Shown piece after piece: positions 2,921 through 63,711 of a stretch of DNA of 64,000 nucleotides. The stretch's first letter is position 1. Each line of letters starts with the position of its first letter. The position numbers were made by a program, and so were the translations under genes. This stretch comes from Eledone cirrhosa (lineage: Eukaryota). The stretch is taken from positions 112,282,001 to 112,346,000 of the forward strand of contig OZ024740.1 in assembly GCA_964016885.1 (NCBI GenBank), read 5' to 3'. The notes under the pieces are model-generated. The model did not search any database and had not been told where the DNA came from. It saw nothing but the letters and a program-made list of their open reading frames with translations.

Positions 2921-3080
2921 ATGGTAGAAGTGAGACTCCCATGAATGGTTTTATAAATATAGTTTCCATTTATTTAATATCATTGTATATATATATATAT
3001 ATATAGGGAATGCAACGTCCAGTTACTGTAGGTTCACCAGACATATCAAATCGTCCTTTTTATTATTATTATTATTATTA

Positions 3081-3266
3081 GGGCGGTGGATTGGCAGTAT
3101 TGGTAGAGGGTCGGACGCCATATTTGACGTATAGAGTTACGGCCCTTGCCATTCTGAGTTGAAATCCCGCCGAGGTTAACTTTGCCTTTCATCCTTACGG
3201 GGTCGATAAAATAAAGTACCAGTAATGTACTGGGTAATTGCTGGCCTTGTACCAAAAGTAGAAACA
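3081..3266 (+). mobile_element. tRNA-derived SINE (family A)
   Basis: GGCGGTGGATTGGCAG...GAGTTGAAATCCCGCCGAGGTTAACTTTGCCTTTCATCCTTACGGGGTCGATAAAATAAAGTACCAG; flanked by (ATT)n; more than 15 copies in the window. Confidence 0.85.
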
Positions 3267-3288
3267 ATTATTATTATTATTATTATTG

Positions 3289-3790: not shown

Positions 3791-4164
3791 TTCTATCTGG
3801 AGTTGCGACCGATAGATAGTATTAGCAATTGGAAAGACCAACGGAAACATTGTTTCCTCGGTCCGATTTGACGAAAGTCGATCGTTTGAAGATTCACCCC
3901 TGATGAACCACTCTGCAATACCACTTCTGATATATATGTATATAATAGGTGGATTCCTGTTGTATATCGGGAGATGACAACCGTTACAAAAAGTACTCAG
4001 TACGCTAATAGAATATAGGCATCTACAGTACACACACACACGCACACACACACACGCACACACACACACACATATATATGTGTATGTGTGTGTCGGGTTT
4101 AATCGGGGGTAACCACAGTAAGTAAGGTACTCAATACATAGCAGAGGATAAATATTTAATATAG

Positions 4165-4244
4165 AAATGGCTTCTACAGGACTAGAACAGTCGACTTTCC
4201 TGATGATTTCCTTCGAATGAAACAGTTCTAGTCATGTAGAAGCC

Positions 4245-4248
<4 letters not shown>
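4165..4248 (+). mobile_element. Penelope-like pLTR remnant with HHR core and inverted terminal copy
   Basis: IR 4165-4188/4225-4248; CTGATGA (4200-4206)...GAAAC-A-GTT (4219-4227); ends in (TA)n. Confidence 0.6.
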
Positions 4249-4407: not shown

Positions 4408-4698
4408 AATTATAGTAAAATAAAACAAAGACGAGTTGTTACTCCTTCATTACGTTTATTGGTTGGTGACGCGCGTTTCGCCACTGGTCAGCTCAAGGTT
4501 CGATCTGACCCCTTATAATGGTAATGAAGAATCATTTTTTCATTACCATTATAAGGAGTCTGACGAGCCGTGAATTACAGAGTCGGGCTAGATCGATACA
4601 GATGGAACCTTGAGCTGACCAGTGGCGAAACGCGCGTCACCAACCAATAAACGTAATGAAGGAGTAACAACTCGTCCTTGTTTTATTTTACTATAATT
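4408..4698 (+). mobile_element. Fold-back non-autonomous Penelope-like element with HHR core
   Basis: 100-bp IR 4408-4507/4599-4698; inner IR 4507-4528/4539-4560; CTGACGA-GCC...GGC-GAAAC-GCGC-GTC (4560-4638); AATAAA and TA tail. Confidence 0.7.
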
Positions 4699-17875: not shown

Positions 17876-17912
<37 letters not shown>

Positions 17913-17979
17913 AAAAGGTAAACAGAAATAACAACACAATCAGTACAGTATATGGAAGGGATATATATCTATATATATA

Positions 17980-18974: not shown

Positions 18975-19334
18975 TACATATATGCATATATAGATATAAT
19001 GTGTGTGTGTGTTTTATGTGCTTATGTTAAGTCTGTAGTCCATATGTCCATATATGGTATACACCCATATGTCTATTGCTGTTTATATAAAGGATGCATG
19101 TATGTGTGTGTGGTGAGGGGAGATTTATATTTAAAAAAAAAAGAGTGGAGAAAATGAAGGAAGAGAAGAACAGACAGTCTAAAAGGTCTAAGCAAGGATG
19201 TATTTCTATTATAACCTTAAATAATTCATTATCTGAGTGTCAACTAACATTGATATTTTCAATATATCCAATTTATGACTAATATGTTTGATGGCATGTT
19301 TGATGGATTTATGTCTTGTGGTATACCTGTTAAT

Positions 19335-19600
19335 CATCACCGTTTTATGTCCATTCTTCCACGCTAGCATGGGTTAGACGGGTTGTCCTGTTGTGGGCAG
19401 TGTCCAGTCATCTGACCTTGTCTTGCTCATTCGGGAATTGATTCTGGCTTGATTTCTACAGCTGGATGCCCTTCCTAACACAAACCTCATTTACAGTGAG
19501 TGCTGGGTGCTTTTTTTCCGTGGCCCCTACACGTCCACTTTACAGTGTGGGCTGGGTGCTTTTTTGCCGTGGCACCTCCAAGACCACTTTGCAGTGGGAG
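19335..19600 (-). mobile_element. SINE 3' part carrying two copies of the 48-bp unit
   Basis: TTTCTACAGCTGGATGCCCTTCCTAAC followed by two TTTACAGTG.G.GCTGGGTGCTTTTTT units. Confidence 0.75.
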
Positions 19601-23356: not shown

Positions 23357-23661
23357 ACATATATATGCTGTATTTATTGATATTGAATATATAAGCATGG
23401 AAAAAGTAGAAATTAAACAATGATACAAGTATATATATATGTGTGTGTGTGTGTAGTAAAATACCAATATATTTTGTTAAAACCCAGGCGCAATGCACAG
23501 TAGAAAAATAGGAAGGGCAAATGGTGACAAATGTAACAAAACAAAGTAATTGTTTTACTCAGTGTATTCTAACATGAAAATACATCTACAGAACTTGAAA
23601 TGTTTTATGTGTTTGAAATCATCAATGAAACAGTTGTACACTTGTAGGAATCATTTATATG

Positions 23662-23755
23662 TGTATGTATATTCAAACGAATGGAACATTTCTATTTAAT
23701 AGTGCTTTTCTTCTGTTCCTCTTCAAAAAACCTTTCTTAATTTCATATAAATATA
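23662..23755 (-). repeat. Left arm of a 94-bp inverted repeat (partner 27381-27474)
   Basis: Reverse complement matches 27381-27474 with one mismatch. Confidence 0.9.
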
Positions 23756-23763
23756 TATATATA

Positions 23764-25918
23764 TGTAAAAACCCACCTACAAACCCTCACCTCGATGCTT
23801 TCGAACAAGATTTAATGGAAATGACCATGAACATTAAGTTCAACAAACATAGAAATAATGAGCTGCAGAACAACATGAAAGCACTACTCCGAAGATTGCA
23901 AAATACCAATGGAATTGTTGTGAAAGCTGACAAGACTTCTAACGTGTATACCATGGATATCGATACGTACAATAACTTCATACGCAACGAACTACACAAA
24001 AAATATAGAAAAACAAATGAAACTACGCTAGCAAATATTAACAACGAGGCATATAAAGTGGTGAAGAATCTCAAAATAGACGATAGAACCGAGCCGATTA
24101 TACCCGCTACCCCCACCTTCAACCTGAAGGACCATAAGGTAAATTTTGACTCTAACCCTAAGATCAGACTTATATGCCCTTCTAAATCAGACATAGGGAA
24201 AATTAGCAAACATATACTTGACAGAGTAATAACTCAAGTGAAAAAGAAAATTGATATTAAATTATGGGGCAACACTAGCGAAGCAATTCGCTGGTTTAAT
24301 AATGTTAAGTATAAGAATAAATCTAACTTTATACAATTTGACATAGACGAATACTACTCTTCCATCTCACCAAGCACTTTACGTAAGGCCCTATCGTTTG
24401 CTAAGGCCAATTCCGACCTAACGGAAGACGAAATTAATATTATTCTCGAGGCTAGAAAAACCATTATTAAGTTCGATAACTGCTACTGGGAACGTAAGGA
24501 CAGACCCACAAATTTCGATATTACCATGGGTTCCAACGACTCGGCGGAGGTCACGGATCTCGTGGGAATTTACATAGCCCACATATTACATAGTAAATTT
24601 AGTAATCTACAGGGGGGGGGGGATATACAGAGATGACGGGCTCTTATTAGTTAATAACTTGAATAATCAAAATCTTGAAAGGCTACGGAAAAATATTAGA
24701 AAATCTTTTAGTGAACTGGGTCTAAAAATAACATACGAATACAATCTTAAAGTAGTAAACTTTCTGGACGTAACTCTTAATTTAAATACCGGACAGATAC
24801 GACCCTTCCACAAGGTAAATGAGAACCTTACGTATATTAACTTTAACTCTAACCACCCACTCTCCATGATCAAATCAGTTCCCCGGAGTATTTCTCTTAG
24901 AATCTCTCGCCTATCGTCTAACTCTGATATTTTTAGTGAACACGCTGAATACTACAATAATGCATTAAGGAATGCTGACCACCGGGATACAATAGAATAC
25001 ATCGATAGGAATTTCCATAACACACATAGCTCTACACGAAATCAAGGAATACGTAACCGGGGGACTAAAACACAAGCACACACACACAGTACTACCAGAC
25101 ATACTAATAATAGAAGATCACCACCAAATAAATCACGTTGTAGAAAGTATATCTGGTACAATCCTATTTTTAATGCCTCGATTAGTACAAAACTATCTCT
25201 TTCATTCTTTAAATTAATCAACAAACATTTCCCTAGTTCCCATAAATACAGCAAAATTCTGAACTCTAAAACTATTAGACTATCATACTCCACGGCACCA
25301 AACCTTGAAGCATACATAAAAAAACTTAACTTAAGGCAATTAAACAACTCTACAAAACAAAACATTTTAGTAACAGATGGGCAGAACGCAATATCTGCCT
25401 CCCAACAACTAAATGGGAGACGTGTATTACTCAACCCACCTGTACCGCTATCACAACCTATCCATGGTATACCCGCTACCCACAACAAAGAATGTAACTG
25501 CCATCTACCTGAAAGATGTCCATTGAAGAATGAATGCCTAAAGTCCAACATTGTTTACCAATGCACGGTTGAATCGAACGACCAGAAATGGTATTATATC
25601 GGATCTACCACCACATCGTTTAAATCTCGCTGGTACCGTCATCGATTCTCAATCAAGCATCCGAATCACCGTTTTGTGACCACACTCGCCAACAAGACCT
25701 GGCAACTCCGTGAACACAACCAACAGTTCACCTTAAAATGGGATATACTTTCCAGCGCAAGTGCATATCGGAGTGGATTGAAGTACTGCAGGTTATGTAA
25801 CCTTGAGCTATTTTACATATTAAAATCCCAAAACAAACTACTTAACGATAGAATAGAACGATCATTATACTGCAACCACAAACTAAAAGTTAAATTCTCT
25901 CACTATAAAATAACTTAA
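23764..25918 (+). CDS. Naiad-type Penelope-like retroelement ORF: reverse transcriptase + GIY-YIG endonuclease; 5'-truncated, frameshifted at G11 (24612-24622)
   Basis: Motifs ADKTSNVY, LKDHKVNF.SNPKIRLICPSKSDIGKISK, FIQFDIDEYYSSI, FDITMGSND, YRDDG (across the frameshift), NFLDVTLNL, IWYNP, IRLSYS, CNC-CPL-C, IVY...YIGST, CRLC, CNH. Confidence 0.93.
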
Positions 25919-26409
25919 CATTCGAACCCATAACTATAACACCACTTTCTAGCTAACAACCTTCTCTTACCCCCACACTACAAGACAATACACTGCTTAT
26001 CACTATACATGGTAACTCAGTGCAATTCCTAGATTACTACTACAAACCCAAAGTTCACTCACCACACATACTTTGTCTGTCTCCTCTCTACCTATCTCTC
26101 TCTACATCCATTACACTCTCTCTCTCTCACCTTTGACCTACCTCCCTCTCAACATCTATGAACCTGCCCTCTGAGGCAATAAATAATTCCGACCTTAACT
26201 ATCAACGCATCTCTCCAAAAGTAACCAGTATAATAAAACCCCTACCATAACATTTTGATTAAGATATCTACAAGCCACTCTCTCCTACTTCTCCAACCCC
26301 TGCATATCTTTCTTTCTCTCTCCCTCTTCCCTACTTTTCTCTCTTCCTGTTCTACTCTATCTTCCCCAACAACCCACTTAAGGGTATTTACATTGTACAT
26401 TTACCATTC

Positions 26410-26521
26410 TGCTCTGAGGAAACAGTGGTCACAGCATTGGATATTCGAGTTCTGCAAGTACTTGTGAATTTGCACGTAGCGTAACTAGGCTGCAGTACCA
26501 CCGTGGAAACACTTGTAAGCA
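26410..26521 (+). ncRNA. Type I hammerhead ribozyme with ~85-nt extended stem II
   Basis: TGCT-CTGAGGA-A-ACAGTGGT...ACCACCGT-G-GAAAC-ACTT-GTA-AGCA; stem I TGCT/AGCA; GUA cleavage triplet. Confidence 0.75.
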
Positions 26522-26568
26522 CACGGAATAAATTACCTTTTTATGATGTCTACCTGTTATTATTCATT

Positions 26569-26640
<72 letters not shown>

Positions 26641-32857: not shown

Positions 32858-33567
32858 TAAATATTTGCTCTACGGTTCTTATATATTTGATATATATTTA
32901 TCCTTATCGAGCCCTCTTTGGATTTTAGTCTTCAAATTTATTATTATTACTATATATATATATATATTAATAAATAAAAATCTGCTTTTAAATTTCATAA
33001 ACATAATCATAATATACACCTTTGAAAATATATCTGAAAAATTTCATCGACATATTTATAATGAAAAACACTGTCAATTATTTTCAAAGAAGGCTCGGGT
33101 ATAGATATAAATGCGCAAATAACATTATAGATTGCTCGTAATTCGTTCAGAAGAACATTACAAATATAATGTCGTTGAAAACACAAATATAAACATATAA
33201 AACAAGAAAAAAAGTACCACGGCTGATGGCGAAGCTAAGGCGCTGAAACAACCAGGCGAGCCGCCAGCGATGACAAGAACTTCGCTGTCAGCGGCTCAAC
33301 TCCACCAAACGTCTCGAACGCCACAGGCTGGAGAAAATAATTACTGGATAAATCCAGGTATCCTATTATTTTATAACTTCGTTTACTGAGTGTAATATAC
33401 TTTGATTCTTAATATTATGCCTTAAGGCTTCATAATACGTCTAAAGGCTTCCATAAATTTAAACGTTTTCCCTGCCATATTTAAATGGTCTTGTTTACGT
33501 TCTTCGTTGTTGTTTTTTCCTCTCACTGGGATTTTAAAACGCATAAGGTATTTATTTGTATTTGATT

Positions 33568-33636
33568 GATTCTGAGGAATTATTCTTACAGGAATCAATA
33601 TCTATTCTTGTTACTCTAACGAAACGTTCGTAAATT
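33568..33636 (+). ncRNA. Type I hammerhead motif in a Penelope-like 3' end (33420-33675)
   Basis: GATT-CTGAGGA-...ACAGGAAT/ATTCTTGT...-GAAAC-GTTC-GTA-AATT; homologue at 60451-60519. Confidence 0.65.
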
Positions 33637-33769
33637 CATTAAATGCTTTAATAATAATGGTTCTTTAATCTTTCGTTTATATATATATATATATATATAA
33701 ACAAGGTTTAGCAAATAATGAAAAAGTTTCAAAATAAATTTTTAAAAATTGACTTTACCTACTATAGTT

Positions 33770-37455: not shown

Positions 37456-37513
37456 CAGGGTGTGCCCCCAAAATGTAAACAGACTTTGATTAGAATGGTT
37501 TGGGGACACCCTG
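37456..37513. mobile_element. 58-bp Tc1/mariner-type MITE
   Basis: TA-CAGGGTGTGCCCCCA ... TGGGGACACCCTG-TA. Confidence 0.75.
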
Positions 37514-37550
<37 letters not shown>

Positions 37551-37722
37551 GAACGATCGAATTTCGTCAAATCGGACCGAGGGAACAATGTTTCCGTTGG
37601 TCGAAAGATTTCCTGGTGGAAGTTCAGGTGTACTCCGGGTTGGTATCCAGTTTCGAGGTGAAAGTCCAATCAGAAAATCCAACGAATTTTGAGAGGTCCA
37701 CGTAAGCGTTGATATATATATA

Positions 37723-38189
37723 AAAGGTAAACAGAAATAACAACACAATCGGTACAGTATATGGAAGGTATATATTAGGTTAACGCTTGATATAGCAGGA
37801 AGAGGGTCTTAACGTTTCGGACGCTAATCCTTCATCAGAAGAAAGAATGAGAAATAAAATAGATTGAGGGGACGGGCGGGTTGGAATTGGAAAAAATGTC
37901 TTTAGATAAAAATAACGGGTCCATTCATGTTGACATCTCTTGCAAAACTGTTGGTGCTGGCGTGTTGTGTATGATTTATTGTTTAGAAAAGTGGATGATG
38001 GAGCGCGTCTACCTGAAATGGAAAAAAAAAAACGTTTTGTAAAAAGAGCTATACTTGTGCACGTGAGTAAGCATGTGTGTGTGTGTATGTGTGTGTGTGT
38101 AAAGACCCTCTTCCTGCTATATCAAGCGTTAACCTAATATATACCTTCCATATACTGTACCGATTGTGTTGTTATTTCTGTTTACCTTA
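37723..38189 (-). mobile_element. Fold-back non-autonomous Penelope-like element with 88-bp inverted repeats and HHR
   Basis: 37723-37810 is the reverse complement of 38102-38189; (TA)n flanks; a fragment of the same end lies at 17912-17962. Confidence 0.85.
37807..37842 (-). ncRNA. Minimal type I hammerhead ribozyme
   Basis: Minus strand TCTT-CTGATGA-A-GGA-TTAGCG-TCC-GAAACGTT-AAGA; palindromic AACGTT stem III. Confidence 0.8.
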
Positions 38190-38437
38190 TATATATATAT
38201 ATATATATATTCACACATACACATATCATCATCGTTTAACAGCTTTCCTTGCTGACAATGCTAACAGAATTGCTGATCCAAAGTAAACCCTTACATGTAG
38301 GGTAACTAATGCCTTTCACCTACAATGAGGCAATATCTAAAAATTGCATATTTCACTTACATATTTCCACGGGGATGTTTACTGATATAAAGATCTTCTA
38401 ATGAGACCACTAGAATGGTTGAAAATTAATTAATGCT

Positions 38438-41400
38438 CAGCCCACACTGTAAAGTAGCCGTGTTGGTGTCATGACAAAAATCACCCAGCCCACACTGTAA
38501 AGTAGTCGTGTAGGTGACACAACAAAAATCACCCAGCCCACACTGTAAAGTGGTCGTGTTGACGACACAACAAAGATTGCCCAGCCCACACTGTAAAGTG
38601 GTCGTGTTGACGACACAACAAAGATTGCCCAGCCCACACTGTAAAGTGGTCGTGTAGGTGCCACGACAAAAATCACCCAGCCTACACTGTAAAGTAGCCG
38701 TGTTGGTGTCATGACAAAAATCACCCAGCCCACATTGTAAAGTGGCCGTGTTGGTGTCATGACAAAAATCACCCAGCCCACACTGTAAAGTAGCCGTGTT
38801 GGTGTCATGACAAAAAGTACCCAGCCCACACTGTAAAGTAGCCGTGTTGGTGTCACGACAAAAAGTACCCAGCCCACACTGTAAAGTAGCCGTGTTGGTG
38901 TCACGACAAAAATCACCCAGCCCACACTGTAAAGTAGTCGTGTTGGTGTCATGACAAAAATCACCCAGCCCACACTGTAAAGTAGCCGTGTTGGTGTCAT
39001 GACAAAAATCACCCAGCCCACACTGTAAAGTAGCCGTGTTGGTGTCATGACAAAAATCACCTAGCCCACACTGTAAAGTAGCCGTGTTGGTGTCATGACA
39101 AAAATCACCCAGCCCACACTGTAAAGTAGCCGTGTTGGTGTCATGACAAAAAGCACCCAGCCCACACTGTAAAGTAGCCGTGTTGGTGTCATGACACAAA
39201 GTACCCAGCCCACACTGTAAAGTAGCCGTGTTGGTGTCACGACAAAAATCACCCAGCCCACACTGTAAAGTAGTCGTGTTGGTGTCATGACAAAAATCAC
39301 CCAGCCCACACTGTAAAGTAGCCGTGTTGGTGTCATGACAAAAAGGACCCAGCCCACACTGTAAAGTAGCCGTGTTGGTGTCATGACAAAAATCACCTAG
39401 CCCACACTGTAAAGTAGCCGTGTTGGTGTCATGACAAAAATCACCCAGCCCACACTGTAAAGTAGCCGTGTTGGTGTCATGACAAAAAGCACCCAGCCCA
39501 CACTGTAAAGTAGCCGTGTTGGTGTCATGACAAAAAGTACCCAGCCCACACTGTAAAGTAGCCGTGTTGGTGTCATGACAAAAATCACCCAGCCCACACT
39601 ATAAAGTAGCCGTGTTGGTGTCATGACAAAAAGTACCCAGCCCACACTGTAAAGTAGCCGTGTTGGTGTCATGACAAAAATTACCCAGCCCACACTGTAA
39701 AGTAGCCGTATTGGTGTCATGACAAAAATCACCCAGCCCACACTGTAAAGTAGCCGTGTTGGTGTCATGACAAAAAGCACCCAGCCCACACTGTAAAGTA
39801 GCCGTGGTGGTGTCATGACAAAAAGCACCCAGCCAACACTGTAAAGTAGTCGTGTAGGTGTCACGACAAAAAGTACCCAGCCCACACTGTAAAGTAGCCG
39901 TGGTGGTGTCATGACAAAAAACACCCAGCCCACACTGTAAAGTAGCCGTGTAGGTGTCACGACAAAAAGTACCCAGCGCACACTGTAAAGTAGTCGTGTT
40001 GGTGTCATGACAAAAATCACCCAGCCCACACTGTAAAGTAGCCGTGTTGGTGTCATGACAAAAAGCACCCAGCCCACACTGTAAAGTAGCCGTGGTGGTG
40101 TCATGACAAAAATCACCCAGCCCACACTGTAAAGTAGCCGTGTTGGTGTCACGACAAAAAGCACCCAGCGCACACTGTAAAGTAGTCGTGTTGGTATTAC
40201 GACAAAAAGCACCCAGCGCACACTGTAAAGTAGCCGTGTAGGTGTCACGACAAAAAGCACCCAGCGCACACTGTAAAGTAGCCGTGTAGGTGTCACGACA
40301 AAAAGCACCCAGCGCACACTGTAAAGTAGCCGTGGTGGTGTCATGACAAAAATCACCTAGCCCACACTGTAAAGTAGCCGTGTTGGTGTCATGACAAAAA
40401 TCACCCAGCCCACACTGTAAAGTAGCCGTGTTGGTGTCATGACAAAAAGCACCCAGCCCACACTGTAAAGTAGCCGTGTTGGTATCATGACAAAAAGTAC
40501 CCAGCCCACACTGTAAAGTAGCCGTGTTGGTGTCATGACAAAAATCACCCACCCCACACTATAAATTAGCCGTGTTGGTGTCATGACAAAAAGTACCCAG
40601 CCCACACTGTAAAGTAGCCGTGTTGGTGTCATGACAAAAATTACCCAGCCCACACTGTAAAGTAGCCGTATTGGTGTCATGACAAAAATCACCCAGCCCA
40701 CACTGTAAAGTAGCCGTGTTGGTGTCATGACAAAAAGCACCCAGCCCACACTGTAAAGTAGCCGTGGTGGTGTCATGACAAAAAGCACCCAGCCAACACT
40801 GTAAAGTAGTCGTGTAGGTGTCACGACAAAAAGTACCCAGCCCACACTGTAAAGTAGCCGTGGTGGTGTCATGACAAAAATCACCCAGCCCACATTGTAA
40901 AGTGGCCGTGTTGGTGTCACGACAAAAAGTACCCAGCGCACACTGTAAAGTAGTCGTGTTGGTGTCATGACAAAAATCACCCAGCCCACACTGTAAAGTA
41001 GCCGTGTTGGTGTCATGACAAAAAGTACCCAGCCCACACTGTAAAGTAGCCGTGTTGGTGTCACGACAAAAAGTACCCAGCCCACACTGTAAAGTAGCCG
41101 TGTTGGTGTCACGACAAAAATCACCCAGCCCACACTGTAAAGTAGTCGTGTTGGTGTCATGACAAAAATCACCCAGCCCACACTGTAAAGTAGCCGTGTT
41201 GGTGTCATGACAAAAATCACCCAGCCCACACTGTAAAGTAGCCGTGTTGGTGTCATGACAAAAATCACCTAGCCCACACTGTAAAGTAGCCGTGTTGGTG
41301 TCATGACAAAAATCACCCAGCCCACACTGTAAAGTAGCCGTGTTGGTGTCATGACAAAAAGCACCCAGCCCACACTGTAAAGTAGCCGTGTTGGTGTCAT

Positions 41401-44400
41401 GACACAAAGTACCCAGCCCACACTGTAAAGTAGCCGTGTTGGTGTCACGACAAAAATCACCCAGCCCACACTGTAAAGTAGTCGTGTTGGTGTCATGACA
41501 AAAATCACCCAGCCCACACTGTAAAGTAGCCGTGTTGGTGTCATGACAAAAAGGACCCAGCCCACACTGTAAAGTAGCCGTGTTGGTGTCATGACAAAAA
41601 TCACCTAGCCCACACTGTAAAGTAGCCGTGTTGGTGTCATGACAAAAATCACCCAGCCCACACTGTAAAGTAGCCGTGTTGGTGTCATGACAAAAAGCAC
41701 CCAGCCCACACTGTAAAGTAGCCGTGTTGGTGTCATGACAAAAAGTACCCAGCCCACACTGTAAAGTAGCCGTGTTGGTGTCATGACAAAAATCACCCAG
41801 CCCACACTATAAAGTAGCCGTGTTGGTGTCATGACAAAAAGTACCCAGCCCACACTGTAAAGTAGCCGTGTTGGTGTCATGACAAAAATTACCCAGCCCA
41901 CACTGTAAAGTAGCCGTATTGGTGTCATGACAAAAATCACCCAGCCCACACTGTAAAGTAGCCGTGTTGGTGTCATGACAAAAAGCACCCAGCCCACACT
42001 GTAAAGTAGCCGTGGTGGTGTCATGACAAAAAGCACCCAGCCAACACTGTAAAGTAGTCGTGTAGGTGTCACGACAAAAAGTACCCAGCCCACACTGTAA
42101 AGTAGCCGTGGTGGTGTCATGACAAAAAACACCCAGCCCACACTGTAAAGTAGCCGTGTAGGTGTCACGACAAAAAGTACCCAGCGCACACTGTAAAGTA
42201 GTCGTGTTGGTGTCATGACAAAAATCACCCAGCCCACACTGTAAAGTAGCCGTGTTGGTGTCATGACAAAAAGCACCCAGCCCACACTGTAAAGTAGCCG
42301 TGGTGGTGTCATGACAAAAATCACCCAGCCCACACTGTAAAGTAGCCGTGTTGGTGTCACGACAAAAAGCACCCAGCGCACACTGTAAAGTAGTCGTGTT
42401 GGTATTACGACAAAAAGCACCCAGCGCACACTGTAAAGTAGCCGTGTAGGTGTCACGACAAAAAGCACCCAGCGCACACTGTAAAGTAGTCGTGTAGGTG
42501 TCACGACAAAAAGCACCCAGCGCACACTGTAAAGTAGCCGTGTTGGTGTCATGACAAAAATTACCCAGCCCACACTGTAAAGTAGCCGTATTGGTGTCAT
42601 GACAAAAATCACCCAGCCCACACTGTAAAGTAGCCGTGTTGGTGTCATGACAAAAAGCACCCAGCCCACACTGTAAAGTAGCCGTGGTGGTGTCATGACA
42701 AAAAGCACCCAGCCAACACTGTAAAGTAGTCGTGTAGGTGTCACGACAAAAAGTACCCAGCCCACACTGTAAAGTAGCCGTGGTGGTGTCATGACAAAAA
42801 ACACCCAGCCCACACTGTAAAGTAGCCGTGTAGGTGTCACGACAAAAAGTACCCAGCGCACACTGTAAAGTAGTCGTGTTGGTGTCATGACAAAAATCAC
42901 CCAGCCCACACTGTAAAGTAGCCGTGTTGGTGTCATGACAAAAAGCACCCAGCCCACACTGTAAAGTAGCCGTGGTGGTGTCATGACAAAAATCACCCAG
43001 CCCACACTGTAAAGTAGCCGTGTTGGTGTCACGACAAAAAGCACCCAGCGCACACTGTAAAGTAGTCGTGTTGGTATTACGACAAAAAGCACCCAGCGCA
43101 CACTGTAAAGTAGCCGTGTAGGTGTCACGACAAAAAGCACCCAGCGCACACTGTAAAGTAGCCGTGTAGGTGTCACGACAAAAAGCACCCAGCGCACACT
43201 GTAAAGTAGCCGTGGTGGTGTCATGACAAAAATCACCTAGCCCACACTGTAAAGTAGCCGTGTTGGTGTCATGACAAAAATCACCCAGCCCACACTGTAA
43301 AGTAGCCGTGTTGGTGTCATGACAAAAAGCACCCAGCCCACACTGTAAAGTAGCCGTGTTGGTATCATGACAAAAAGTACCCAGCCCACACTGTAAAGTA
43401 GCCGTGTTGGTGTCATGACAAAAATCACCCACCCCACACTATAAAGTAGCCGTGTTGGTGTCATGACAAAAAGTACCCAGCCCACACTGTAAAGTAGCCG
43501 TGTTGGTGTCATGACAAAAATTACCCAGCCCACACTGTAAAGTAGCCGTATTGGTGTCATGACAAAAATCACCCAGCCCACACTGTAAAGTAGCCGTGTT
43601 GGTGTCATGACAAAAAGCACCCAGCCCACACTGTAAAGTAGCCGTGGTGGTGTCATGACAAAAAGCACCCAGCCAACACTGTAAAGTAGTCGTGTAGGTG
43701 TCACGACAAAAAGTACCCAGCCCACACTGTAAAGTAGCCGTGGTGGTGTCATGACAAAAATCACCCAGCCCACATTGTAAAGTGGCCGTGTTGGTGTCAC
43801 GACAAAAAGTACCCAGCGCACACTGTAAAGTAGTCGTGTTGGTGTCATGACAAAAATCACCCAGCCCACACTGTAAAGTAGCCGTGTTGGTGTCATGACA
43901 AAAAGTACCCAGCCCACACTGTAAAGTAGCCGTGTTGGTGTCACGACAAAAAGTACCCAGCCCACACTGTAAAGTAGCCGTGTTGGTGTCACGACAAAAA
44001 TCACCCAGCCCACACTGTAAAGTAGTCGTGTTGGTGTCATGACAAAAATCACCCAGCCCACACTGTAAAGTAGCCGTGTTGGTGTCATGACAAAAATCAC
44101 CCAGCCCACACTGTAAAGTAGCCGTGTTGGTGTCATGACAAAAATCACCTAGCCCACACTGTAAAGTAGCCGTGTTGGTGTCATGACAAAAATCACCCAG
44201 CCCACACTGTAAAGTAGCCGTGTTGGTGTCATGACAAAAAGCACCCAGCCCACACTGTAAAGTAGCCGTGTTGGTGTCATGACACAAAGTACCCAGCCCA
44301 CACTGTAAAGTAGCCGTGTTGGTGTCACGACAAAAATCACCCAGCCCACACTGTAAAGTAGTCGTGTTGGTGTCATGACAAAAATCACCCAGCCCACACT

Positions 44401-47400
44401 GTAAAGTAGCCGTGTTGGTGTCATGACAAAAAGGACCCAGCCCACACTGTAAAGTAGCCGTGTTGGTGTCATGACAAAAATCACCTAGCCCACACTGTAA
44501 AGTAGCCGTGTTGGTGTCATGACAAAAATCACCCAGCCCACACTGTAAAGTAGCCGTGTTGGTGTCATGACAAAAAGCACCCAGCCCACACTGTAAAGTA
44601 GCCGTGTTGGTGTCATGACAAAAAGTACCCAGCCCACACTGTAAAGTAGCCGTGTTGGTGTCATGACAAAAATCACCCAGCCCACACTATAAAGTAGCCG
44701 TGTTGGTGTCATGACAAAAAGTACCCAGCCCACACTGTAAAGTAGCCGTGTTGGTGTCATGACAAAAATTACCCAGCCCACACTGTAAAGTAGCCGTATT
44801 GGTGTCATGACAAAAATCACCCAGCCCACACTGTAAAGTAGCCGTGTTGGTGTCATGACAAAAAGCACCCAGCCCACACTGTAAAGTAGCCGTGGTGGTG
44901 TCATGACAAAAAGCACCCAGCCAACACTGTAAAGTAGTCGTGTAGGTGTCACGACAAAAAGTACCCAGCCCACACTGTAAAGTAGCCGTGGTGGTGTCAT
45001 GACAAAAAACACCCAGCCCACACTGTAAAGTAGCCGTGTAGGTGTCACGACAAAAAGTACCCAGCGCACACTGTAAAGTAGTCGTGTTGGTGTCATGACA
45101 AAAATCACCCAGCCCACACTGTAAAGTAGCCGTGTTGGTGTCATGACAAAAAGCACCCAGCCCACACTGTAAAGTAGCCGTGGTGGTGTCATGACAAAAA
45201 TCACCCAGCCCACACTGTAAAGTAGCCGTGTTGGTGTCACGACAAAAAGCACCCAGCGCACACTGTAAAGTAGTCGTGTTGGTATTACGACAAAAAGCAC
45301 CCAGCGCACACTGTAAAGTAGCCGTGTAGGTGTCACGACAAAAAGCACCCAGCGCACACTGTAAAGTAGTCGTGTAGGTGTCACGACAAAAAGCACCCAG
45401 CGCACACTGTAAAGTAGCCGTGGTGGTGTCATGACAAAAATCACCTAGCCCACACTGTAAAGTAGCCGTGTTGGTGTCATGACAAAAATCACCCAGCCCA
45501 CACTGTAAAGTAGCCGTGTTGGTGTCATGACAAAAAGCACCCAGCCCACACTGTAAAGTAGCCGTGTTGGTATCATGACAAAAAGTACCCAGCCCACACT
45601 GTAAAGTAGCCGTGTTGGTGTCATGACAAAAATCACCCACCCCACACTATAAAGTAGCCGTGTTGGTGTCATGACAAAAAGTACCCAGCCCACACTGTAA
45701 AGTAGCCGTGTTGGTGTCATGACAAAAATTACCCAGCCCACACTGTAAAGTAGCCGTATTGGTGTCATGACAAAAATCACCCAGCCCACACTGTAAAGTA
45801 GCCGTGTTGGTGTCATGACAAAAAGCACCCAGCCCACACTGTAAAGTAGCCGTGGTGGTGTCATGACAAAAAGCACCCAGCCAACACTGTAAAGTAGTCG
45901 TGTAGGTGTCACGACAAAAAGTACCCAGCCCACACTGTAAAGTAGCCGTGGTGGTGTCATGACAAAAAGCACCCAGCCCACACTGTAAAGTAGCCGTGTA
46001 GGTGTCACGACAAAAAGTACCCAGCGCACACTGTAAAGTAGTCGTGTTGGTGTCATGACAAAAATCACCCAGCCCACACTGTAAAGTAGCCGTGTTGGTG
46101 TCATGACAAAAAGCACCCAGCCCACACTGTAAAGTAGCCGTGGTGGTGTCATGACAAAAATCACCCAGCCCACACTGTAAAGTAGCCGTGTTGGTGTCAC
46201 GACAAAAAGCACCCAGCGCACACTGTAAAGTAGTCGTGTTGGTGTCACGACAAAAAGCACCCAGCGCACACTGTAAAGTAGCCGTGGTGGTGTCATGACA
46301 AAAATCACCTAGCCCACACTGTAAAGTAGTCGTGTTGGTGTCATGACAAAAATCACCCAGCCCACAATGTAAAGTAGCCGTGTTGGTGTCATGACAAAAA
46401 GCACCCAGCCCACACTGTAAAGTAGCCGTGTTGGTGTCATGACAAAAAGTACCCAGCCCACACTGTAAAGTAGCCGTGTTGGTGTCACGACAAAAATCAC
46501 CCAGCCCACACTGTAAAGTAGTCGTGTTGGTGTCATGACAAAAATCACCCAGCCCACACTGTAAAGTAGCCGTGTTGGTGTCATGACAAAAAGGACCCAG
46601 CCCACACTGTAAAGTAGCCGTGTTGGTGTCATGACAAAAATCACCTAGCCCACACTATAAAGTAGCCGTGTTGGTGTCATGACAAAAAGTACCCAGCCCA
46701 CACTGTAAAGTAGCCGTGTTGGTGTCATGACAAAAATTACCCAGCCCACACTGTAAAGTAGCCGTATTGGTGTCATGACAAAAATCACCCAGCCCACACT
46801 GTAAAGTAGCCGTGTTGGTGTCATGACAAAAATCACCCAGCCCACACTGTAAAGTAGCCGTGTTGGTGTCATGACAAAAAGTACCCAGCCCACACTGTAA
46901 AGTAGCCGTGTTGGTGTCATGACAAAAATCACCCAGCCCACACTATAAAGTAGCCGTGTTGGTGTCATGACAAAAAGTACCCAGCCCACACTGTAAAGTA
47001 GCCGTGTTGGTGTCATGACAAAAATTACCCAGCCCACACTGTAAAGTAGCCGTATTGGTGTCATGACAAAAATCACCCAGCCCACACTGTAAAGTAGCCG
47101 TGTTGGTGTCATGACAAAAAGCACCCAGCCCACACTGTAAAGTAGCCGTGGTGGTGTCATGACAAAAAGCACCCAGCCAACACTGTAAAGTAGTCGTGTA
47201 GGTGTCACGACAAAAAGTACCCAGCCCACACTGTAAAGTAGCCGTGGTGGTGTCATGACAAAAAGCACCCAGCCCACACTGTAAAGTAGCCGTGTAGGTG
47301 TCACGACAAAAAGTACCCAGCGCACACTGTAAAGTAGTCGTGTTGGTGTCATGACAAAAATAACCCAGCTCACACTGTAAAGTAGCCGTGTTGGTGTCAT

Positions 47401-48533
47401 GACAAAAAGCACCCAGCCCACACTGTAAAGTAGCCGTGGTGGTGTCATGACAAAAATCACCCAGCCCACACTGTAAAGTAGCCGTGTTGGTGTCACGACA
47501 AAAAGCACCCAGCGCACACTGTAAAGTAGTCGTGTTGGTGTTACGACAAAAAGCACCCAGCGCACACTGTAAAGTAGCCGTGTAGGTGTCACGACAAAAA
47601 GCACCCAGCGCACACTGTAAAGTAGCCGTGTAGGTGTCACGACAAAAAGCACCCAGCGCACACTGTAAAGTAGCCGTGGTGGTGTCACGACAAAAATCAC
47701 CCAGCGCACACTGTAAAGTAGTCATGGTGGTGTCACGACAAAAAGCACCCAGCGCACACTGTAAAGTAGTCGTGGTGGTGTCACGACAAAAAGCACCCAG
47801 CGCACACTGTAAAGTAGTCGTGGTGGTGTCACGACAAAAAGCACCCAGCGCACACTGTAAAGTAGTCGTGGTGGTGTCACGACAAAAAGCACCCAGCGCA
47901 CACTGTAAAGTAGTCGTGGTGGTGTCACGACAAAAAGCACCCAGCGCACACTGTAAAGTAGTCGTGGTGGTGTCACGACAAAAAGCACCCAGCGCACACT
48001 GTAAAGTAGCCGTGGTGGTGTCACGACAAAAAGCACCCAGCGCACACTGTAAAGTAGTCGTGGTGGTGTCACGACAAAAAGCACCCAGCGCACACTGTAA
48101 AGTAGTCGTGGTGGTGTCACGACAAAAAGCACCCAGCGCACACTGTAAAGTAGTCGTGGTGGTGTCACGACAAAAAGTACCCAGCCCACACTGTAAAGTA
48201 GCCGTGGTGGTGTCACGACAAAAAGTACCCAGCGCACACTGTAAAGTAGTCGTGGTGGCGTCACGACAAAAAGTACCCAGCCCACACTGTAAAGTAGCCG
48301 TGGTGGTGTCACGACAAAAAGTACCCAGCGCACACTGTAAAGTAGTCGTGGTGGTGTCACGACAAAAAGTACCCAGCGCACACTGTAAAGTAGCCGTGGT
48401 GGTGTCACGACAAAAAGCACCCAGCGCACACTGTAAAGTAGTCGTGTTGGTGTTATGACAAAAAGCACCCAGCGCACACTGTAAAGTAGTCGTGGTGGTG
48501 TCACGACAAAAAGCACCCAGCGCACACTGTAAA
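38438..48533 (+). repeat. 48-bp tandem array, 210 units, SINE-derived, with higher-order repeat structure
   Basis: Consensus CAGCCCACACTGTAAAGTAGCCGTGTTGGTGTCATGACAAAAATCACC; first and last unit starts 38438 and 48518 differ by 10080 = 210 x 48. Confidence 0.98.
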
Positions 48534-48697
48534 TGTGGTTGGCGTTAGGAAGGGAATCGAGCTGTAGAAACCAAGTGAAAATCAGTTGTGTGAGCAAAAC
48601 ATGATCCTCCGACCTGGTTCTCTTAACAGGACATCCCGTCTACCGTCCTACTCATGCTAGCGTGGGAAATAAATGTTAAATGATGATGATGATGATG
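48534..48697 (+). mobile_element. SINE 3' tail contiguous with the 48-bp array
   Basis: GGTTGGCGTTAGGAAGGGAATCGAGCTGTAGAAACC...CATGCTAGCGTGGGAAATAAATGTTAAATGATGATGAT. Confidence 0.85.
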
Positions 48698-59834: not shown

Positions 59835-60537
59835 GCATACATAAAAGCTTCATGAATTTTCCTTTTACCCTCCTATTTATCATATAATTGTTAAGGCCAT
59901 ACTACGTTATAATCACAGTTTTATTTTTTAATTAATCTATCTCCTCTGTAACTATATCTTTAGTTATTTGAAGTTTCTTAGCCACTAAACCTTCATTTTA
60001 ATTATAGATATATTTATTATTGCTGTGTGCTTCCATACATTTTTAATGTCCGCTTAGTATATTCTATTTTATTGACTTTGCCTTTCATCCTTACGGGGTC
60101 GATAAAATAAAGTACCAGTAATGCACTGGGTAATTGCTGGCCTTGTGCCTAAAGTAGAAACAATTATGTTTATCACTTCACTTACTAAGTGTAATAGACC
60201 TTATACTTTCTATTAGTATACTTCTAGCTCTATTTTAGTGTACAGTATATTTTGTATCAATATATTTTTGCTAGTAAAATATTTATAGTTATTAAATGAT
60301 ATTTTTTTAATCATTTATGAATTTTTAACAACGTCTTCAGGCTTCCATAAATTTTAACGTTTTTTCCACCATATTGTTCTTCGGTCTGTTTTTTTTTTTT
60401 TGTTTTCACCGGAATTTTAAAGCATGTAAGGTAATTATTTGTATTTAGCTGATTCTGTTGACTTATTCTTACAGAAATGAATATTTATTCTTGTTAGTCT
60501 AACGAAACGTTCGTAAATTCATTAAATGCTTTAATAA
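59835..60537 (+). mobile_element. Naiad-type 3' UTR + pLTR with decayed HHR (60451-60519), interrupted by a SINE piece (60074-60162)
   Basis: Homologous to 30430-30630 and 33420-33657; core mutated to CTGTTGA. Confidence 0.7.
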
Positions 60538-61099
60538 TTGTTTCTACTTTTGGCACTAATGATGCTTGTTTATTCTTTGCACACGCATGTGTGAATATAT
60601 ATATATATCGTTACTGTGCTTTAGAACAGTTTATATATCGCACTACATATAGACAGAAACACAATCTCACAAACCTATTTAATGTATTCATTAAAATCAT
60701 ATCAGCAACAATTACGCATATATAGTTACTTAATTATTGCTTATATGAATTAATGGATACATATTGTATATGTGTGTAAATACATATGGATATACATGTG
60801 TGTGCGTGTATATATATACAAACGCAAACATATTTATTATACATCAAAATTGAGAAAGACAAGCCGACAAAATAAAAATTAACCTCAAATTAACAACTGC
60901 TGTACACTCAAGTAGGATCCATTGTTTTCTAATACAGAGAGTTGACTCTAACTCAGTAAACATCTCAACTAAATACCGCCCTGGGGTGCAGGGACACTTA
61001 TATATCCACAACCGTAGTGCTGCAGATATGTCAACAAATTTTGAATTAAAAAAAATTCATGTAGTGTGTTAAAAACTTAATGGATGGTGGGTCGTTAAT

Positions 61100-63342: not shown

Positions 63343-63711
63343 ATCATCATCATCATCATCATCATTTTACGTCCGCTTTTCCCTGCTTGCAAGGGTGGGG
63401 CGGGATCTGATTTTGGCTTGATTTCTACAGCTGGATGCCCTTCCTAACACCAACCTCATTTACAGTGAGTGCTAGGTGCTTTCATTCCGTGGCGCCCTCA
63501 CGACCACTTTACAGTGTGGGCTGGGTGCTTTTTTGCCGTGGCACCTCCACGACCACTTTGCAGTGGAATGATAGGGACCCCAGTCCTATCATTTAATTTC
63601 TACAGCTGGGTAAACTGGAGCAATGTGAAATAAAGTGTCTTGCTCAAGGAAACAACACATCACCCGGTAGATTGCAAGGCCAATGCTCTAACCACTAAGC
63701 CATGTACCTCC
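63343..63711 (-). mobile_element. Young family B SINE with two 48-bp units and a deletion in the tRNA head
   Basis: Near-identical to 20497-20820 apart from those differences. Confidence 0.9.

Follow-up and report, generated by a model that had tools for sequence, protein, structure and literature searches.

A head-to-head, probably PLE-type insertion in Eledone cirrhosa whose short arm starts at a predicted hammerhead cleavage site

Architecture of the locus

The window, which is the whole 64,000-nucleotide stretch of Eledone cirrhosa DNA analyzed here, consists of microsatellite-rich animal DNA. It contains two arms of one repeat arranged head-to-head. The long arm extends on the minus strand from 37722 to 38073 and represents the 5'-truncated 3' end of an abundant repeat family of the PLE pseudo-LTR type, leading through CCTTTT into the left (TA)n target, as read from the sequence at 37712 to 37721. 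The short inverted arm is positioned on the plus strand from 38102 to 38188. It opens with AAGACCCTC at 38102, terminates in CCTT, and is followed in the sequence by the right (TA)n target at 38189 to 38210, where the microsatellite masks any target-site duplication. The junction between the arms is formed by a (TG)n tract with TA interruptions (38074 to 38101), which is likely element-derived. Note that the junction at 38101/38102 is known from the assembled sequence alone, the reads having been aligned over 37529 to 38073.

When numbered from the predicted ribozyme cut described below, offsets 0 to +86 of the short arm are identical to positions 37810 through 37724 of the long arm (87 of 87), and offsets -1 and +87 differ. 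The matches at offsets -2 and -3 come about only through the junction (TG)n tract, which ends in GT. An inverted copy of 88 bp at 38102 had been claimed in an earlier note on this DNA; its identity and its start are upheld, but offset +87 differs and the length is 87. At its 3' end the short arm has two T fewer than the long arm. Homology to the family reaches 38073, the edge of the region covered by reads, and 641 reads of the RAD set X16 overrun the ends of the 37529 to 38073 stretch, the left end of which is without depth.

Adjacent to the long arm, and also on the minus strand, lies a lower-copy repeat piece (37529 to 37711), which over 37605 to 37699 has ∼1% of the family depth. It belongs to the long arm as a long 3' extension, or else stems from an older insertion that took place separately. 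One contig of set X1 spans 37618 to 37750, with 7 other letters and 8 gaps. With regard to partial tandem or pLTR structure, the X16 data contain one joint that goes back 241, in 41 reads. The ORFs checked include no PLE ORF in this 380-base copy, which may be all 3' UTR, and a long ORF across the copy was considered and rejected. A poly-T tract at 38013 to 38070 on the minus strand ends in CCATTTCAG with branch-point-like words upstream, and is similar to a 3' splice site, placed ∼175 bases ahead of the ribozyme. In a comparator locus (L306), one reference copy has TTCAG directly before the position at which L306 starts.

The layout, with head-to-head 5'-truncated arms whose 3' ends point outward in (TA)n, is that of a published PLE inverted insertion. 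For EN+ PLE insertions an inverted 5'-truncated copy has been described, and the function of the hammerhead was called unclear (PMC8557442). The locus resembles these elements in its 5' truncation, in the inverted truncated copy found at the 5' end, in its (TA)n targets, and in a hammerhead near the 3' end. It differs from them in that it has no ORF, in that a short tail of 30-40 bases is seen on neither arm, and in that arm starts were not related to the cut in the available part of that work. PLE insertions are usually short (PMC9977147). On the basis of architecture, rather than of an ORF link to an autonomous PLE, we infer that the copy belongs to the PLEs. A MITE or DNA transposon was ruled out, as both arms represent a single 3' end truncated to different extents, and the family depth is one-sided. 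The locus is similar to the non-LTR retrozymes, which are short non-coding repeats with type I hammerheads and proposed PLE derivatives (PMC7229834; bioRxiv 10.64898/2026.07.22.740005). Unlike those elements, which are recognized by at least two consecutive tandem units, each with a hammerhead, it contains one hammerhead and inverted arms, and whole units arrayed head-to-tail were not seen. Taken by itself, the locus is an ordinary insertion of a truncated retrotransposon, of a known kind.

The predicted hammerhead and its cut

A minimal type I hammerhead motif is found on the minus strand from 37842 to 37807, with its core at 37838 to 37832 and its triplet, GTT, at 37813 to 37811. It reads TCTT-CTGATGA-A-GGAT/TAGC/GTCC-GAAA-C-GTT^AAGA, where the predicted cut falls after GTT. 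Helix I is formed by TCTT and AAGA. The CTGATGA core is followed by an extra A at 37831, a helix II of 4 bp (37830 to 37819), GAAA, and a palindromic helix III (ACGT) leading to GTT. This pattern occurs once in the window, and none of 100 shuffles yields it. The CUGANGA core, the GAAA, and the NUH triplet stand in type I order. The features of the minimal PLE type are likewise present, namely a helix I of 4-5 bp that follows NUH in register, the G10.1-C11.1 pair, an extra base after position 9, and the palindromic helix III. The motif shares with the minimal hammerheads of metazoan PLEs a helix I of 4 bp, an additional base located between positions 9 and 10.1, the G10.1-C11.1 pair, and a palindromic helix III, and it differs from those of the Schistosoma families in that helix II is 4 bp rather than 7-8 bp (PMC4209133). 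At position 37827, the letter with which helix II becomes Watson-Crick throughout is present in 4,565 of 4,785 X16 family reads, and the window copy has a G-U pair there.

Rfam Hammerhead_1 and its clan give no match at the gathering threshold, nor at E-values up to 10 in 37500 to 38250; the minimal variants do not have the helix III that is modelled. Rfam scaRNA and miRNA matches were below threshold and were set aside as microsatellite artefacts. The isolated motif, as a monomer, does not take up the active-shape fold (z -0.5), which is to be expected because minimal hammerheads are thought to act as dimers (PMC4209133). According to the same source, those of metazoans cleave poorly in vitro.

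From the motif, self-cleavage is predicted between 37811 and 37810. The earlier note had placed a minus-strand hammerhead here with cleavage after GTT, and both motif and register are borne out. Helix I comprises 4 bp in the GTT register versus 2 pairs in the UUA register. Across 89 distinct related hammerheads, Watson-Crick pairing over the first three positions of helix I is highest in the GTT register (0.75) and falls to 0.39, 0.39, and 0.27 when the register is shifted by -1, +1, and +2, respectively. The UUA register is disfavoured by this weaker pairing, both here and among the related motifs. The inverted arm starts at exactly the first base of the predicted 3' cleavage product (offset 0), as had been proposed.

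Genomic 5' junctions at a ribozyme cut have been taken as evidence for cleavage in vivo in R2, which carries an HDV-like ribozyme (PMC3774820), and in Perere-3, which carries a twister variant (PMC8501958), and such a junction, at a predicted cut, is likewise present at the locus. In those two elements most of the ribozyme is located 3' of the cut, and it sets the normal full-length end. By contrast, most of a type I hammerhead is located on the 5' side of its cut, and the ribozyme is lost from such copies; unlike R2 and Perere-3, only a small minority of PLE copies end there. Opposite-strand hammerhead pairs 100-700 bases apart have already been noted (PMC4209133). In those pairs both arms keep the ribozyme, whereas at this locus one arm starts at the cut.

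One copy cannot tell cleavage from stalling or chance. The same twin-primed PLE insertion would result without any cleavage if the reverse transcriptase had been halted at a folded or protein-bound ribozyme, or if self-complementary words had fixed the join. Helix I covers +0 to +3. Against this reading, the short arm begins at exactly +0. Alternatively, a random 5' truncation of the inverted arm may have landed on the cut and the copy then been singled out for it, very many PLE copies having been surveyed. These two readings are taken up again below, where other copies bear on them.

The repeat family and related elements in the window

Three contig sets and one RAD read set (X16) were aligned to 37529-38073. 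The family is very abundant, with 18,688 X1 contigs and 16,429 X16 reads on this stretch. Its depth is at a maximum at the 3' end and declines toward 38073, the 5' side. The 3' end is fixed near 37721, and the loose ends at 37712 to 37721 run into (TA)n or (TG)n. A fixed 3' end in (TA)n-type microsatellites together with 5' truncation, as in EN+ PLEs, is accordingly seen in the depth gradient, in the loose ends, and in a further copy at 17912. In two other organisms the ribozyme is the depth peak.

There is no step in depth at the cut in the X16 reads, which number 5,012 over 37795 to 37813 and 5,007 over 37814 to 37832; the successive bins from 37757 to 37851 hold 6,312, 5,652, 5,012, 5,007, and 4,609. 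The X1 contigs show no step either (1.059M versus 1.065M across the cut). The loose ends listed for X1 and X16 are the 3' end, 37602, 37859, 37982, and 38028, and the cut is absent among them. As X16 consists of RAD data, in which molecules stack at 37885 to 37888 in a restriction-site-like manner, it is biased to long copies. The absence of a step thus excludes a dominant hotspot, but one that accounts for a few percent would stay hidden. The smooth truncation gradient is what a chance landing on the cut would lead one to expect.

Breakpoints unrelated to the cut, which the earlier note had named as arguing against its reading, are largely what is found in this family. Apart from the absent step, the sole other family copy found in the window (17912 to 17966, minus strand), a 3' end only that is 96% alike over 55 bases, breaks near +35 from the cut. 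A second hammerhead fold-back, a near-palindrome at 4408 to 4698 with its core at 4560 and its predicted cut at 4638/4639, has an inverted arm with a 39-base internal deletion that extends at least 40 nt beyond its own cut. Both of its arms are weak Rfam Hammerhead_1 matches (21.7 bits versus 34).

The perfect identity of the two arms at 37722 to 38188 is rare by the standards of the family, in which 421 of 16,429 X16 reads are at least 99% alike to the window. This argues that both arms came from the same template and likely in one event. The two-T difference at their 3' ends fits separate priming better than a hairpin copy, which should retain an identical 3' end. The short arm could nevertheless have had a separate origin, through another insertion that entered a compound (TG)n(TA)n microsatellite, through an inverted duplication at the DNA level, or through a hairpin second strand. 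The left-hand (TG)nTA and the right-hand (TA)n would together rebuild a common compound microsatellite, and family 3' ends sit in such tracts. Furthermore, the long arm has ∼5 near-private changes in the 263 bases outside the shared part and none inside it, as would fit a later copy; an old insertion with unchanged arms has a P of 0.04, but the data are also compatible with a recent insertion whose template had aged (P 0.19). Given also that the layout is typical of PLEs (PMC8557442), we regard a separate origin as very improbable. A PLE origin in a single event is held with high confidence, and two primings are probable.

Several other elements were observed in the window. A 51-base two-hairpin motif is common to 37552-37602 and 3836-3886, in otherwise different repeats. 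It is very abundant in contigs of two organisms, its folding is not significant (z 0.3 and -1.3), and it could be a conserved RNA signal. At 23629 to 26575 on the plus strand is a 5'-truncated, frameshifted PLE-like ORF of another family, which ends in (TA)n and has a weak Pfam GIY-YIG match at the cut-off (E 1e-4). Its cysteine-rich linker is, we presume, Neptune-like. The same element contains a hammerhead-like motif at 26414 to 26517 with a helix II region of ∼85 bases. Other hammerhead-like motifs with long middle regions occur at 33572 to 33640 (plus strand), 33847 to 33775 (minus strand), and 60455 to 60520 (plus strand), and 33437-33655 is 80% alike to 60331-60538. A very stable hairpin at 4165 to 4248 on the plus strand (z -6.9) encloses GTC, CTGATGA, and GAAA in the order of a type III hammerhead. 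Its helices I and II are tiny, (TA)n follows, and it has no Rfam hammerhead match. An array of ∼10 kb with a 48-base unit and higher-order repeats extends from 38343 to 48600, with dispersed relatives at 19333-19596 and 63401-63566. A dispersed SINE-like family of ∼190 bases, at 3060 to 3288 and ∼15 other places, shares a 3' end in (ATT)n and is variously truncated at its 5' end. Finally, a small inverted-repeat element at 37457 to 37514, CAGGGTGT...ACACCCTG between TA, is taken by us to be like a Tc1/mariner MITE.

5' ends in comparator families and the proposed pathway

Among the papers listed by literature searches, none tabulates, to judge by its title, the opening of its abstract, or the text available, PLE 5' ends against the hammerhead cut. 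Such a tabulation, which the earlier note had suggested for the copies of the family, was carried out in other PLE-type families. A pattern scan gave at least 120 metagenome loci, 80 of them with full flanks. Two genome bins that bear animal DNA (G001 and G003) contained 55 and 35 hammerhead motifs, and the reversed control pattern none. Although filed as prokaryotic, both are rich in animal-type PLE copies (for example L237, L268, and L249), which points to contamination by host DNA. The bins were searched family by family with at most 40 candidates scored per search. The resulting 377 comparator loci contained 196 de-duplicated copies, of which 21 lie at contig edges. It is not the case, as it is for R2 and Perere-3, that most complete copies begin at the cut: the window family shows no depth step there, and 142 of the 196 comparator copies keep the ribozyme, a share due in part to the sampling method. 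Family-specific pattern scans of metagenome and viral contigs returned no matches. None of 71 viral pattern matches passed the helix filter, and 5 matches to a comparator motif were unrelated. The window element has no match beyond the ribozyme in the comparator loci fetched.

After curation, which was manual and unblinded, 24 events remained whose 5' end lies between -29 and +24. These fall at -27, -26, -24, -24, -22, -18, -18, -11, -8, -7, -4, +1, +1, +1, +2, +2, +3, +7, +8, +10, +13, +17, +20, and +23, with none cleanly at 0. Six of the 24 lie at 0 to +3, where 1.8 are expected (P 0.007). Two of the assignments are ambiguous, as L003 could be -3 and L336 could be -5; with one moved the count is 5 (P 0.029), and with both it is 4 (P 0.10). 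Any 4-nt window would hold 6 of 24 with a P of 0.21, and the enrichment thus rests on the hypothesis having named the 0 to +3 window. Dropped before the count were L390 (a 29-base match only), L048 (a cross-family match), L052 and L017 (low complexity), L263, L313, and L069 (own ribozyme remaining), and L333 (contig edge); the duplicates L294 and L374 were counted once. With L390 and L048 restored, the figure is 6 of 26 (P 0.010). An apparent cluster of ends at -35 to -43 was left unscored, as ribozyme-anchored sampling and subfamily divergence both create it. In L068 and L069, family-like sequence seems to end at the cut on the 3' side and to continue as TA-rich DNA; these are possibly copies of the 5' cleavage product.

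Most inverted arms in opposite-strand comparator pairs retain the whole ribozyme, and in many pairs both arms do. Within one comparator family, whose ORF end is of PLE type, each of the seven fold-backs has its tail of ∼35 nt on a single arm, in keeping with separate priming. The cut looks like a minor hotspot (∼2-3% of copies) and not the rule.

Symmetric junctions were found in family A of G003, which is Poseidon-type and carries a GIY-YIG ORF. Three of its eight head-to-head pairs, with differing flanks, have both arms starting at +1 or +2. L285 is a +1/+1 palindrome joined at GC; just one of its arms carries a tail, and its target-site duplication measures 13 bases. The older L293 is +1/+1 by hand reading and has an 11-base target-site duplication. 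L373 is +2/+2 with no clear target-site duplication. In the remaining five pairs the shorter arms end at -37, -71, -174, -222, and -289.

The density of comparator ends is 1.5 per base at 0 to +3 versus ∼0.36 per base nearby. If the window family behaves like the comparators, roughly three in four such ends would be site-specific, and about one-quarter of the coincidences would be due to chance even with a real excess. A chance landing has against it both the excess at 0 to +3 and the three symmetric junctions in one family, and we consider it unlikely. Stalling at the ribozyme is consistent with the comparator ends at +1 to +3, which fall inside helix I, and with those at -4, -7, -8, and -11, which lie inside the ribozyme, -7 and -8 being at the foot of helix II. 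Against cleavage, L002 extends 3-4 nt beyond the cut, which a cut RNA cannot template. The symmetric junctions sit at self-complementary words (GC; CAAnTTG), as they would if local words had fixed the join; yet two separate family A events share the +1/+1 join, and 2-base self-complementary words are everywhere.

The purified PLE protein of a lizard (PAc, the Poseidon PLE of Anolis) cuts and extends both strands of AT-rich targets, uses two reverse transcription start sites, is predicted to be a dimer, and is the source of the twin-priming model (PMC11167929). In vitro its main substrate was uncut RNA, as stalling would have it, and cleavage was not needed. No RNA-seq reads were found to end at the cut, whereas at the locus a genomic end is there. 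We regard stalling as a rather unlikely cause of the short arm's start. By our judgement of the weights, a site-specific cause would be cleavage in about two cases out of three and stalling in the rest, which leaves cleavage, itself predicted, about evenly balanced overall.

In the pathway that we prefer, a single PLE insertion would have taken place at a break in (TA)n, each side of which primed a cDNA. The long cDNA would likely have been copied from uncut RNA, past the ribozyme and as far as the (CA)n tract. The short cDNA would likely have run off an RNA already cut by the predicted hammerhead, stopping at +0, and the two cDNA ends would then have been joined in the (TG)n tract. Taken as a whole, this twin-primed reading with a ribozyme-cut template has in our estimation an even chance of being correct, as does cleavage as the particular cause of the short arm's start.

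The earlier note had called the junction a direct footprint of a ribozyme-defined RNA 5' end copied in inverted orientation during integration, a reading that is supported in part. A ribozyme-defined end is a reasonable cause of the arm start because 5' ends in the comparator PLE-type families are modestly enriched just past the cut, the symmetric junctions included. The depth of the window's own family, with no step at the cut, lends the footprint no such support. What the note described as an RNA end copied in inverted orientation is more plausibly a second cDNA, whose priming took place on the opposite side of the break in the target. The tabulation placed 4 to 6 of the 24 ends at 0 to +3, and most inverted arms keep the whole ribozyme.

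More tentatively, and with considerable doubt, PLE inverted insertions might record hammerhead cleavage in vivo. A dimeric PLE protein would hold two RNAs paired via the palindromic helix III, each priming one side of the target. Cutting of one RNA would give arms like those in the window, and cutting of both the +1/+1 palindromes of family A. If this is true, junction tables from genomes would gauge, family by family, how far metazoan minimal hammerheads are cleaved in vivo. Symmetric junctions would put to the test the model of two RNAs and two primers for inverted arms.

At stake is whether minimal hammerheads cleave in cells when they are part of animal PLEs. If genomic 5' ends were reproducibly in excess at the cut, this would be cheap evidence on the point, for which genome sequence alone suffices. 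The effect here is small and rests on other families. The small excess of cut-site starts in related families would hint at an occasional use of self-cutting RNA in living cells.
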